Origin: a virus
Lineage: Duplodnaviria; Heunggongvirae; Uroviricota; Caudoviricetes
Length of the DNA: 48,504 nucleotides
Virus record (IMG/VR): IMGVR_UViG_2718218100_000006
Reading direction: 5' to 3' (one strand)
The first letter of the stretch is position 1. Every line of letters begins with the position of its first letter. Position numbers: made by a program. Below are positions 6,001-9,000 of this stretch, one piece after another.

Positions 6001-9000
6001 AGAAACCATTGGTGAAAGGGCTCTATTCATGTTTCCTCCGGTTTTATAACTCAGGCGCGGCGGCATTTTTGCGCCGCAATCCATCTCGCTATGAGATCTT
6101 CCATTGATTCTTTTTTCTGCTTTAACTCGCTGATTATCTGGCGTTGCTCATCCTCAGGGAAGGCTGAAAAAATCTGCAATAATTCCAGTTGATTAGACGT
6201 TAACCCTGCATGTGGTGGAGAACCCCCCGGTTGTTCTGCGTATTCCGCATCCAGATACCCTTCCGGCATCCCGTATGTTTGCTCTATTCTTCTGGCAGCC
6301 TTTTCTCCAAACGAGGCTCTCCCACTCATTAGTTGAGATAGGTAGCTCTTCTCTTTGGGTGGCAGAGTTTTATCTTTAAACCACTCCTTGAGACGTAAAC
6401 GGCGAATTTCTTTTTTTTGCATGTGGTAATTATCTTTAGTAATCACTAAACAAGCAAATACTTGACTTAATGGTTTATTAAACACTAAACTCGCAAAAAA
6501 ACACTAAACCGAGGAAGGTATGACATTAAAAGAGTGAACCGCCCCGGAAATCCTGGAGACTAAACTCCCTGAGAAAGAGGTAAACAGGATGACTAAAAAT
6601 ACTCGTTTTTCCCCCGAAGTCCGTCAGCGGGCGATTCGTATGGTTCTGGAAAGTCAGGATGAATATGACTCACAGTGGGCGGCAATTTGTTCCATTGCCC
6701 CAAAGATTGGCTGTACGCCGGAGACTCTGCGTGTCTGGGTTCGCCAGCATGAGCGGGATACCGGGGGCGGTGATGGTGGGCTCACCAGCGCTGAACGTCA
6801 GCGTCTGAAAGAGCTGGAACGTGAAAATCGTGAACTGCGCCGCAGTAACGATATCCTTCGCCAGGCTTCCGCTTATTTTGCGAAGGCGGAGTTCGACCGC
6901 CTCTGGAAAAAATGATGCCACTGCTGGATAAGCTGCGTGAGCAGTACGGGGTCGGACCGGTATGCAGCGAACTGCATATTGCCCCGTCAACGTATTACCA
7001 TTGTCAGCAACAGCGACATCATCCGGATAAACGCAGTGCCCGTGCGCAGCACGACGACTGGCTGAAGAGAGAGATACAGCGCGTATACGATGAAAATCAT
7101 CAGGTGTACGGTGTGCGTAAAGTCTGGCGTCAGTTGTTACGGGAAGGAATCAGGGTGGCCAGATGTACAGTGGCACGTCTCATGGCGGTTATGGGACTTG
7201 CCGGTGTTCTCCGGGGTAAAAAGGTCCGTACGACCATCAGCCGGAAAGCCGTTGCCGCAGGCGACCGCGTAAACCGTCAGTTCGTGGCAGAACGACCTGA
7301 CCAGCTGTGGGTGGCTGATTTTACTTACGTCAGCACATGGCAGGGCTTCGTCTATGTGGCGTTTATCATTGATGTGTTTGCCGGATACATCGTGGGGTGG
7401 CGGGTCTCATCGTCTATGGAAACGACATTCGTGCTGGATGCGCTGGAGCAGGCGTTGTGGGCCCGTCGTCCGTCTGGCACCATCCATCACAGCGATAAAG
7501 GCTCTCAGTATGTGTCACTGGCCTATACGGAGCGACTAAAAGAAGCCGGATTACTGGCATCAACAGGGAGTACAGGCGACTCGTATGACAACGCGATGGC
7601 TGAGAGCATCAATGGTCTTTACAAAGCGGAGGTAATACACCGTAAGAGCTGGAAAAACCGTGCAGAAGTGGAACTGGCCACACTAACGTGGGTGGACTGG
7701 TATAACAATCGACGATTGCTGGGAAGGCTGGGCCATACTCCTCCGGCAGAAGCAGAAAAAGCTTATTATGCTTCCATCGGAAACGATGATCTGGCAGCCT
7801 GAGTTCACAGATAAAACACTCTCCAGGAAACCCGGGGCGGTTCAGAGTTTATTAAATCATTAAGGGTTGGTGATGCTAAGAAATTCGCGGCCAGACTTGG
7901 TGTATCGCCATCTTACTTATCGCAAATGGCGTCTGGACGAACAGCTATATCTCCAACCCGCGCCCTTATGATCGAATCTGCGACGGAAGGCCAAGTAAGT
8001 AGGGCGGAGCTACGACCCCATGATTGGGAGCTTATTTGGCCTGAGTATGCGAGCGGCATTCGTTTGGGGCAAACACATGTAGTTCATGCTGAAGGTGATT
8101 GTAGTGCATGCTTATCTGATGGAGTTGATTCATGAAAATCAAGCATGAACACATCCGCATGGCGATGAATGTCTGGGCGCATCCGGACGGCGAAAAAGTA
8201 CCGGCTGCGAAAATTACCAAAGCGTATTTCGAGCTGGGAATGACGTTCCCGGAACTGTATGACGACAGCCATCCGGAAGCCCTGGCCCGTAATACCCAGA
8301 AAATTTTCCGTTGGCTGGATAAAGACACCCCTGATGCTGTTGAAAAAATGCAGGCTCTGTTACCGGCGATCGAAAAGGCGATGCCGCCTTTGCTGGTGGC
8401 CCGTATGCGCAGCCACAGTTCTGAATATTACCGTGAGATCGTCGAACGGAGGGATCGGCTGGTGAAGGATGTCGATGATTTTGTTGCGTCAGCGGTTGTT
8501 TTGTATGACCAGATGAATCGCGGCGGCCCGGCAGGGAATGCTGTGGTGATGCACTAAAAGCACGGTGTTCGGGGGTTTTATGAGCAGCAAGCTTCATGGT
8601 CTTGTCTGGGAAGGGTGCGCCTTCACCGGCATGATCTTATCCAGGGTGGCGGTTATGGCCCGTCTTGCAGACTACAGCAATGACGAGGGCGTGTCATGGC
8701 CTGCCATTGAAACTATCCGGCGTCAGATCGGTGCAAGAAGTGAATCCACAGTGAAATCGGCTATTGCAGAACTGGCGAAAGAGGGCTGGCTGACGAAGGA
8801 AGAGCGTAAGGTCGGTGGGCGTAATGTAAGCAATATCTATCGGCTTAATGTGGAAAAACTCGAAGCAGCTGCTGCGGCGGCGCGTGAGTCATATAAACCG
8901 AAAAGAAAAATTAGCCCGGCAAAAAATGACCCGTTAACAGTTGACCCGTCAAATATTGCCCCCTCAACGGTTGACCCGTCAAATTTTGATGGATCAACTG

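Follow-up and report, generated by a model that had tools for sequence, protein, structure and literature searches.

The stretch of DNA analysed here (the window, 48,504 nucleotides) contains a lambdoid prophage whose cro-like gene has been split by an insertion sequence, raising the question of whether the insertion has disabled the lytic arm of the immunity switch and whether it is this event that holds the prophage in place. The best explanation, to which a probability of roughly 80% is attached, is that an IS629 hop has created a ydaS null allele and left the switch locked by the repressor PaaR2, as an extra lesion in a prophage that was already dead. IS629, as the IS1203 isoform that is common in O157:H7, hopped into ydaS at codon 5/6, duplicating GAG, in a cryptic lambdoid prophage of E. 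coli O157:H7 that is of the Sp12/CP-933P type.

The insertion and its site

A complete IS629 of 1310 bp (the IS1203 isoform, of the IS3 family) occupies 6535-7844 on the + strand and points in the same direction as PR (Table 1). Its terminal inverted repeats of 25 nt match at 22 positions (88% complementary), perfectly so over the first 13 nt, and end in TG...CA tips (TGAACC...GGTTCA). The family hallmark of overlapping orfA and orfB with a programmed -1 frameshift and a stimulatory pseudoknot is present: an A6 slippery run lies at 6907-6912 at the overlap, the RF01497 match scores 121.5 bits where the gathering score is 50, and the IS3 transposase profile NF033516, which has 369 positions, is covered by OrfA at 1-86 and by OrfB at 93-369, OrfB scoring 316 bits. 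IS3 family elements transpose by a copy-out/paste-in mechanism. The copy is 100% identical to two others in strain E32511 (three identical copies), and these, together with the intact ORFs and ends, suggest recent IS629 activity.

Table 1. Features of the immunity region and the insertion, in window coordinates
Feature	Position	Strand	Basis
parE2, toxin gene, intact	5559..5837	-	Pfam ParE_toxin, E = 4.8e-16; RefSeq RelE/ParE toxin
paaA2, antitoxin gene, intact	5839..6030	-	Pfam PaaA2, E = 1.7e-19; RefSeq WP_001302048.1
paaR2, CI-analogue repressor, leaderless, starts MQKKE, intact	6051..6422	-	ORF search
OR operator region, three CACTAAAC repeats (6444, 6483, 6502), intact	6444..6509	.	pattern search
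PR-type promoter (predicted), TTGACT, 18 nt, TAAACT, intact	6462..6491	+	consensus scan
ydaS 5' stub, codons 1-5 (MTLKE)	6520..6534	+	direct reading of sequence
GAG target-site duplication, left copy	6532..6534	.	direct reading; single GAG in empty site
IS629 left inverted repeat, IRL	6535..6559	+	inverted-repeat search
orfA, 108 aa	6589..6915	+	Pfam HTH_Tnp_1; NF033516 profile positions 1-86
ALIL frameshift-stimulating pseudoknot	6870..6986	+	Rfam RF01497, full length 1-117
orfB, 296 aa, DDE integrase core	6912..7802	+	Pfam HTH_21, rve, rve_3
IS629 right inverted repeat, IRR	7820..7844	+	inverted-repeat search
GAG target-site duplication, right copy	7845..7847	.	direct reading of sequence
ydaS 3' part, codons 6-100 + stop	7848..8135	+	translation
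YdaT operator OM (TTGATTcatgaaAATCAA), ydaS/ydaT boundary, adjoins PRE, intact	8125..8142	.	motif search
ydaT, CII analogue, intact coding sequence	8132..8557	+	Pfam YdaT_toxin
O-like replication initiator gene, intact	8580..9542	+	Pfam HTH_36, DnaD_N; RefSeq CDS
DnaC-type helicase loader gene, intact	9549..10289	+	Pfam IstB_IS21, Bac_DnaA

Naming at the nucleotide level as IS629/IS1203 is by way of 100% identity to copies that RefSeq assigns to the IS1203 family, IS1203 being an isoform of IS629 (sub-type I of O157; PMC3271280). RefSeq labels the element 'IS3-like element IS1203 family transposase, programmed frameshift', and not as a pseudogene, and the equivalent Sakai element carries the labels 'IS1203 Family: IS3' and 'IS629 transposase OrfB'. 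A preliminary description had read an intact IS629 flanked by duplicated GAG, and had raised the prospect that alignment might reveal some other element or that the duplication might vanish on re-inspection. Neither happened: GAG stands on both sides, within the 3-4 bp reported for IS629 target duplications (PMC3271280), and the length, inverted repeats, ORFs, ALIL pseudoknot and duplication all fit. Since the identity to IS1203 copies is complete and the same junctions recur in an independent complete genome (NZ_CP045975.1), both an assembly error and an IS3-family element other than IS629 were rejected as scarcely conceivable.

The element splits ydaS after codon 5, leaving a stub (ATG ACA TTA AAA GAG) which is closed by an IS-borne TGA at 6535-6537 and encodes only MTLKE. 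Joining 6520-6534 to 7848-8135 restores a 303-nt ORF of 100 codons plus stop, so that the frame does resume beyond the element as first described. The restored protein is identical over 100/100 residues to PDB 8C7K_A ('Phage antirepressor protein Cro') and to Sakai ECs_2278, scores 46.5 bits with Pfam YdaS_toxin, whose cut-off is 30, and has an HTH_3 match at residues 16-50. The gene initially called cro-like is thus truly an analogue of cro, namely the ydaS that belongs to the immunity region of Sp12/CP-933P, and the worry that its reconstruction might have no homologs has been dispelled. Removal of IS629 and one GAG yields a 1194-bp empty site running from paaR2 to ydaT, which many O157:H7 chromosomes match at 100% in one uninterrupted piece, each with a single GAG; at least 80% of its length is present in 581/5426 complete genomes. 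This alignment to loci lacking the insertion, originally proposed as a check, demonstrates the precision of the insertion much better than does the 3-bp repeat by itself, which would occur by accident once in 64.

Whilst it belongs to the CP-933P/Sp12 YdaS group, the ydaS of the window is a disrupted member whose coding sequence is neither intact nor expressible. Upstream of the ATG at 7926 (codon 32) the remnant has no ATG, GTG or TTG; its frame meets stops at 7800-7802 and 7812-7814 and is then open, albeit start-free, until M32. Because this first usable start falls inside the recognition helix, no DNA-binding product can be made, and the insertion is accordingly a null allele of ydaS. An IS-ydaS fusion protein was considered, as the remnant shares the frame of orfB, but was discarded given the two intervening stops and the lack of a start before codon 32. 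At the right end of the IS, a consensus scan found neither an outward nor a hybrid promoter that might serve the remnant or ydaT, and inspection by eye found TTCAGA with a 16-17 nt spacer and no -10 element. In a near-identical genome the 3' remnant is annotated by RefSeq like any other 'transcriptional regulator' CDS, and automated comparisons of gene content would therefore miss the knockout.

The immunity switch and the genes beyond the element

No change is seen in PR, the operators, paaR2-paaA2-parE2, PRE/OM or the coding sequences of ydaT and of the O-like and DnaC-like genes, and the repressor side is indeed untouched, as had been claimed, paaR2-paaA2-parE2 and the PR/PRM operators being 100% identical to intact loci. 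The paaR2 product (WP_001169686.1) is found as an identical protein in strains with intact ydaS and gives a weak DicA-family match in profile searches; its MQKKE N-terminus has been determined experimentally (PMC8630535). All 92 residues of the parE2 product align with PDB 5CW7_B (E = 7e-60). The divergent ATG codons of paaR2 (6422) and ydaS (6520) are separated by 97 bp, as in PMC8630535, and the operator region between them, footprinted by both PaaR2 and YdaS (PMC8630535), holds three of the four copies of CACTAAAC in the window, against about one expected by chance. The OM motif, described with its footprint in PMC9986795, is the sole match to TTGATTcatgaaAATCAA in the window, where 0.02 would be expected by chance. 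YdaT is 100% identical to PDB 8BT1_A, and a DnaC-type loader is likewise listed for Sp12 (PMC2669165). The predicted PR-type promoter now reads into IS629.

PaaR2 represses PR and PL, and these two promoters, along with the paaA2-parE2 toxin-antitoxin operon, are under the control of a bistable PaaR2/YdaS switch (PMC8630535); these bistability experiments were made on a multicopy plasmid in K-12, not at a single-copy chromosomal locus. In a published tandem-stop mutant of ydaS the ydaST-on population was lost (PMC8630535). By analogy, with YdaS absent PaaR2 would have no competitor at the shared operators and the switch would become monostable in the PaaR2 ('RAE2-on') state, PR and PL staying repressed and the toxin-antitoxin operon remaining under PaaR2 autoregulation. 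Loss of YdaS should therefore collapse the bistable switch into the repressor state.

The tandem-stop mutant of CP-933P (Jurenas et al. 2021, mBio, PMC8630535) is the closest precedent, since the proteins are 100% identical, YdaS is null and paaR2 intact. It differs in that the change is a point mutation, carried on a multicopy reporter plasmid where ydaT continues to be co-transcribed (PMC8630535), whereas here a 1.3 kb IS is interposed at a single-copy chromosomal locus, which adds polarity on ydaT/O/P and the distance from PRE to paaR2 as variables. As in lambda, divergent repressor and cro genes share operators, and without cro the anti-immune state is gone and the repressor state is what is left; unlike in lambda, PaaR2 lacks an autocleavage domain and a ParE-type toxin-antitoxin pair forms part of the repressor operon. 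The racR-ydaS-ydaT region of the K-12 Rac prophage has the same gene order and the same Pfam families (YdaS_toxin and YdaT_toxin), but protein identity is only 26% and 31% (PMC8630535) and the repressor is RacR. For YdaS and YdaT of CP-933P, however, 'toxin' is a misnomer (PMC8630535). The allele offers a clean natural null of a Cro analogue that has been characterised in both structure and genetics, one which could be used to test bistability of the switch in O157:H7 in single copy on the chromosome, and which could reveal the cost of the YdaS-on state to a cell carrying a non-excisable prophage.

The effect on the genes beyond the element is less direct. The preliminary description held that IS629 parts PR from both cro and the ydaT-replication operon; a cut-off of ydaT and the replication genes from PR is inferential. 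Residual transcription from PR would enter the IS in the sense direction and reach ydaT after about 1.6 kb, the last 330 nt of which would be untranslated, and the translational coupling of ydaT to ydaS through the ATGA overlap of start and stop codons would be lost. With this long read-through, the untranslated stretch and the lost coupling, expression of YdaT, O and P is probably reduced, though not necessarily abolished. The cut-off claim is weakened by the terminator search, which predicted no strong intrinsic terminator inside IS629, only weak matches no more frequent than in shuffled sequence, and by stx2::IS629, which did not block downstream phage gene expression, albeit in Q-antiterminated transcription (PMC7430833). 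The downstream genes may still be transcribed whenever PR fires.

These observations, along with the shared direction of IS and PR and the phage production which stx2::IS629 permitted (PMC7430833), lend something to the idea that only Cro function has been lost, transcripts from PR or from an IS629 promoter reading through so that ydaT and the replication genes stay expressible. This is nevertheless unlikely. The 330-nt untranslated stretch from the end of orfB (7802) to the start codon of ydaT (8132), combined with the loss of ATGA coupling, would favour Rho-dependent polarity, the stx2 precedent depends on Q antitermination, and unopposed PaaR2 should in any case keep PR repressed (PMC8630535). 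Loss of the YdaS-on state should be regarded as a better-grounded consequence of the insertion than severance of ydaT and the replication genes from PR.

A prophage with other lesions

The preliminary description had noted an int remnant and a truncated tail module, and both are present: int is frameshifted and truncated, and the tail module ends with gpK and a fragment of I, with no J or tail-fibre genes. The portal ORF is likewise truncated (734 aa vs 859 aa), and PaaR2 has no peptidase domain by Pfam and is not SOS-cleavable. An inducible lambdoid prophage would have an intact int, an SOS-cleavable repressor and complete head and tail genes, and this one lacks all three. Where the earlier account overstated its case was in proposing that IS629 contributes to locking the prophage in place. 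Sp12 of Sakai, with disrupted int, shows no circularisation, replication or packaging (PMC2669165), and its ydaS is intact (ECs_2278); since Sp12 is immobile with ydaS intact, IS629 is not what locks the prophage. It adds a further lesion to a prophage which the int remnant, the truncated portal gene and the truncated tail module had already disabled. A mitomycin C inducibility test, which had been suggested, would be uninformative, because PaaR2 lacks a peptidase domain and is reported to be unresponsive to mitomycin C (PMC8630535).

The exact ydaS::IS629 allele was found in 1/5426 complete genomes, that of the Australian isolate AUSMDU00002545. The early region from 4256 to 15852, IS included, is identical in that isolate and the window, the two having the allele by common descent. 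The left 37 kb of the window also match AUSMDU00002545 best (99.73%), with divergence after 36,980; the allele and the right end of the window occur together in none of the RefSeq complete genomes. The allele is a potential lineage marker for IS typing. In EHEC the IEE protein is reported to promote IS629 excision (PMC9943667), and the block may be reversible.

Such rarity fits the view that the insertion is a neutral passenger, a recent and unselected hop into a module already fixed in the PaaR2 state within a dead prophage, with nothing measurable changed. It is in keeping with this that IS629 is highly active, 62% of its copies lying in prophages (PMC3271280), and that Sp12 is inert in Sakai (PMC2669165). 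The view is plausible, if on balance disfavoured: in the only available experiment most cells were ydaST-on, so YdaS is not obviously dispensable (PMC8630535), and at least five independent IS629 events have struck ydaS/ydaT with none found on the adjacent paaR2-paaA2 side.

IS629 in the early right operon of other strains

Besides the insertion in the window, at least four other independent IS629 insertions lie in ydaS/ydaT of other strains, one of them only 2 bp away, so that two insertions of opposite orientation stand 2 bp apart at ydaS codon 5. In the O-like gene two further alleles, oppositely oriented and of different IS629 subtypes, share one and the same position; their target, GCGGTTG^TGTTCA, resembles the tip of the IS629 terminal repeat, GCGGTTCA, and is present, empty, at 9153-9170 of the window. 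Related prophages have additional IS629 hits in O-like and DnaC-like genes. On the paaR2 side, junction scans found no IS629 within about 680 bp, among the matches listed. All these counts are lower bounds, as the scans miss divergent IS ends and IS-rich genomes.

The concentration of hits in ydaS/ydaT, with the repressor/toxin-antitoxin side spared, hints at hot spots or selection, albeit on weak statistics: five hits against zero over similar lengths gives a one-sided p of about 0.03, and five events placed in about 700 bp would include two within 2 bp of each other with a probability of about 7%. It is conceivable that IS629 recurrently knocks out ydaS-ydaT-O-P of non-excisable prophages, either because the YdaS-on/lytic state is costly or because these are preferred targets, the repressor/toxin-antitoxin side being protected by addiction. 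The five alleles with their close pair, the paired O-like alleles, the hits in related prophages and the clean paaR2 side all point this way. So small a sample, the rarity of every allele, the gaps in the scans and the report of Rump et al. that IS629 has no sequence-specific target nevertheless make such selection or targeting doubtful. The broader proposal, that ydaS-ydaT-O-P of Sp12-type and related non-excisable prophages forms a recurrent IS629 target with micro hot spots (ydaS codon 5 and GCGGTTG^TGTTCA) at which the lytic arm is systematically disarmed, is put forward as a conjecture against which the odds are rather long. Were it true, the repressor/toxin-antitoxin arm would be spared because its loss would kill the cell, and PR would drive into the transposase gene, coupling IS629 activity to derepression of the prophage.

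The nearest known cases are the IS629/IS1203 polymorphisms in prophages of O157:H7, among them stx2::IS629 of FRIK1275 and an IS that lies in the Sp4 gene nu1, which involve the same 1310-bp element with its -1 frameshift and a 3-4 bp duplication (PMC3271280, PMC7430833, PMC2669165). Those insertions, too, land in prophage genes and vary between strains, for which they have been used in IS typing (PMC3271280, PMC7430833, PMC2669165). The site at ydaS codon 5/6 differs in being confined to one complete RefSeq genome and in going unmentioned in the searchable literature, where no mention of ydaS together with IS629 was found. The event is an ordinary strain-specific IS629 insertion of a known kind, knocking out one arm of a well-studied switch, and it does not change what is known of IS629, of the immunity module or of prophage decay. 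An apparent orientation bias, in which the first four ydaS/ydaT alleles all ran in the direction of PR, was dropped, as junction queries detect only the orientation built into them; a query of reversed orientation brought to light an insertion in strain E2863.

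The IS629 insertion in ydaS

The window carries one copy of an IS629-type element, 1310 bp in length, which begins with TGAACCGCCCCGG directly 3' of the first five codons of ydaS, the cro-like gene (ATG ACA TTA AAA GAG), and ends in the mirror-image CCGGGGCGGTTCA, followed by GAG TTT ATT (Table). Of the 369 positions in the NCBIfam IS3 transposase model, its orfA and orfB jointly account for 1-86 and 93-369, and the overlap of the two ORFs holds an A6 run. In two RefSeq genomes the identical IS sequence is labelled 'IS3-like element IS1203 family transposase, programmed frameshift', with no pseudogene flag, and two further copies in strain E32511 share 100% identity with it. 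IS1203 is the sub-type I isoform of IS629 in O157:H7, and IS629 is known to duplicate 3-4 bp of its target (PMC3271280). In view of the ORFs, the model coverage, the A6 run and frameshift pseudoknot, the RefSeq label and isoform, the identical copies and the size of the duplication, the sequence justifies both the name IS629 and the label 'intact', as in the preliminary description, which had also recognised the GAG duplication.

Removal of the element together with one GAG yields an ORF of 303 nt (100 codons), so that the gene is indeed split after codon 5 with its frame resuming beyond the insertion. All 100 residues of the restored protein agree with PDB 8C7K_A ('Phage antirepressor protein Cro'), and the protein is likewise identical to ECs_2278 of Sakai prophage Sp12; it lies above the Pfam YdaS_toxin threshold and matches HTH_3 as well. 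These homologues bear out the description of the gene as cro-like. The reconstructed empty site (6051-6534 joined to 7848-8557, 1194 bp) occurs at 100% identity and in a single piece in many O157:H7 chromosomes, which supplies the comparison with prophages lacking the insertion, and at least 80% of it is present in 581 of 5426 complete E. coli genomes.

The 5' stub of ydaS is closed by a TGA provided by the first three bases of the element, and two stops lie in the ydaS frame at its right end. Translation of the remnant frame revealed no ATG, GTG or TTG upstream of the ATG at codon 32. Since the helix-turn-helix match spans residues 16-50, any product restarted there would be missing helices 1-2 as well as part of the recognition helix; the allele is null for YdaS. 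In the RefSeq annotation of strain AUSMDU00002545 the IS is annotated and the 3' remnant is listed as an ordinary 'transcriptional regulator' CDS (WP_072617017.1) with a non-canonical ATT start; gene-content tables therefore do not show the knockout. The equivalent ydaS stub of E32511 is flagged incomplete.

Features of the window and IS629 insertions in other strains (window coordinates unless stated)
Feature	Position	Remarks
ExoVIII-type exonuclease gene	1108-3579	intact
parE2		Pfam ParE_toxin; match to PDB 5CW7_B
paaA2		Pfam PaaA2
paaR2	6051-6422	N-terminus MQKKE
PR-like promoter	6462-6491	present, unchanged
Operator repeats CACTAAAC		present, unchanged
ydaS codons 1-5	6520-6534
GAG duplication	6532-6534; 7845-7847
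IS629	6535-7844	1 copy
Terminal inverted repeats	6535-6559; 7820-7844	25 nt, 88% complementary
orfA	6589-6915	108 aa; HTH_Tnp_1
ALIL frameshift pseudoknot	6870-6986	Rfam, full length, 121.5 bits
orfB	6912-7802	296 aa; HTH_21, rve, rve_3
Stops in ydaS frame	7800-7802; 7812-7814
3' ydaS remnant	7851-8135
ATG, ydaS codon 32	7926
YdaT operator	8125-8142	TTGATTN6AATCAA (motif: PMC9986795); present, unchanged
ydaT		100% identity to PDB 8BT1
O-like initiator and DnaC-type loader genes		neighbours of ydaS-ydaT
O-like gene site GCGGTTG^TGTTCA	9153-9170, point 9159/9160	empty in window
DUF1627 gene	10315-11084	downstream of DnaC-like loader
Portal ORF	27478-29682	734 aa
Portal region repeats	29005-29597	~160-bp periodic, self-similar (off-diagonal BLAST hits)
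Insertion, 7 genomes incl. E32511, Rafaela_II	after 7903	same IS, in ydaS 56 bp beyond the window's site; duplication GTG
Insertion, PNUSAE151637	after ~8005	ydaS, ~codon 57; IS629 subtype, 95.6% identical; duplication GGC
Insertion, SD134209	ydaT, ~codon 48
Insertion, E2863	2 bp from window's site; 3119-4429 of the E2863 locus	opposite orientation (reversed-IS query)
Insertion, Z866 (O157:H7)	9159/9160; 3220-3230 of its locus	minus orientation; duplication TTG
Insertion, UTAK-6	9159/9160; 3220-3230 of its locus	plus orientation; different IS629 subtype; RacR-type prophage; duplication GTTG

The immunity module and the lytic switch

By its sequence, the neighbourhood of ydaS is the CP-933P/Sp12 immunity region characterised by Jurenas et al. 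(PMC8630535). There, PaaR2 is a leaderless CI analogue which represses PR and PL, YdaS is a Cro analogue competing for the same operators within a 97-bp intergenic region, and YdaT is a CII analogue activating the promoter PRE at the ydaS/ydaT boundary (PMC8630535). The unchanged PR-like promoter, operator repeats and YdaT operator agree with the view that the insertion leaves the repressor side untouched. When tandem stop codons were placed in ydaS, a dual reporter no longer showed the ydaST-on subpopulation, and all that remained was the RAE2-on state (PMC8630535). By analogy with this mutant, a switch carrying the ydaS::IS629 allele should have a single stable state, that of PaaR2.

The element had further been proposed to cut the ydaT-replication operon off from PR. 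A polar effect on ydaT, O and P is plausible, since the IS introduces 1.3 kb with 330 nt untranslated downstream of orfB, and the ATGA coupling of ydaS to ydaT is lost. Against this, a terminator scan found nothing above the shuffled-sequence level, and an stx2::IS629 insertion permitted downstream transcription and phage production, though under Q antitermination (PMC7430833).

Positions 6466-6490 in the PR spacer region (TTAATGGTTTATTAAAC) and 7840-7864 in ydaS codons 6-11 (GTTTATTAAATCATTAAG) form an imperfect inverted repeat (84% over 25 nt), whose arms would lie ~45 bp apart in the empty site. It could be an extra operator-like element, now moved 1.3 kb off by the IS, or could have arisen by chance.

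Decay and recombination of the prophage

The insertion, together with the int remnant and the truncated tail module, had been taken to suggest a prophage locked in place. That it is decayed is clear: int is a frameshifted, truncated remnant (as annotated in the near-identical AUSMDU00002545 locus), the portal ORF is shortened from the 859 aa of E32511 and Sakai, and the tail module goes no further than gpK and a fragment of gpI, after which come nleL and espN. The IS, however, is not the decisive lock. Sakai Sp12, in which ydaS is intact, has a disrupted int and neither circularises, replicates nor is packaged (PMC2669165), and PaaR2, which has no peptidase domain, is reported to be unresponsive to mitomycin C (PMC8630535). 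Together with the int, portal and tail defects, this makes IS629 an additional lesion. In AUSMDU00002545 the annotation gives the portal gene a frameshift and an internal stop. The DUF1627 gene is annotated as frameshifted in both near-identical RefSeq genomes, which adds to the lesions of the early right operon.

A 2510-bp filled-site query gave a one-piece match solely in NZ_CP045975.1, the genome of AUSMDU00002545 (Australia), and a 240-bp left-junction query found the same single genome. The two prophages share 99.73% identity over 1-36,980, with differences grouped in late-gene patches and 4256-15,852, including the IS, identical; the allele is therefore shared by descent. None of the searchable papers describes this specific allele, yet it is present in a public complete genome. 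Past 36,980 the window (to 48504) departs from the Sp12-type prophage of AUSMDU00002545, E32511 and Sakai. Its right-end block (gpL, Arc/Ant insert, gpK, gpI fragment, nleL, espN, gogB fragment and IS2) is contiguous in 344 genomes, and J, lom and tail-fibre genes are absent from 36980-48504. This right end, which resembles that of the Sp4/CP-933M-type prophage, marks the window's prophage as recombined from two lambdoid prophages, the breakpoint lying inside or near gpL.

Further IS629 insertions in the module

Across strains, at least five independent IS629-family insertions fall within ydaS/ydaT (6520-8557), the window's site included, on comparison with the E32511 and E2863 loci and two others (L003, L004). 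In E2863 the reversed IS629 links ydaS codon 5 straight to hokD (window 6533 to ~12634), with an IS-associated deletion of ~4.8 kb in which ydaT, the remainder of ydaS and the O-like, DnaC-like, DUF1627, DUF977 and DUF551 genes are lost. Control scans for IS629 ends in both orientations, which miss divergent ends and IS-rich records of 40 or more pieces, found among the matches listed no IS629 end within ~680 bp left of the operators (paaR2, paaA2 and part of parE2), and two more alleles in the 680 bp right of ydaT, which coincide to the nucleotide within the O-like gene. Their target opens with GCGGTT, as does the IS629 terminal repeat at its tip, suggesting that this likeness to the IS end may direct insertion here. 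IS629-family copies also occur in O-like and DnaC-like genes of related prophages.

The counts suggest hot spots, selection or both, but the statistics are weak: five events against zero over similar lengths correspond to a one-sided p of ~0.03, and the chance that two of five events in ~700 bp fall within 2 bp of each other is ~7%. That IS629 repeatedly, and perhaps in a targeted way, disarms the lytic arm is a tentative reading, to which we assign a probability of roughly one in four. All of the components are already known and well characterised, namely IS629/IS1203 in O157 prophages, the PaaR2/YdaS/YdaT switch, with YdaS and YdaT structures already solved, and the defectiveness of Sp12. 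The ydaS::IS629 allele adds a new case to a familiar class of events; the observation itself is confirmed, and its original interpretation is partly supported. In E32511, the ExoVIII-type exonuclease gene of this prophage holds a second, 100% identical IS629 (1189-2498 of the E32511 locus).
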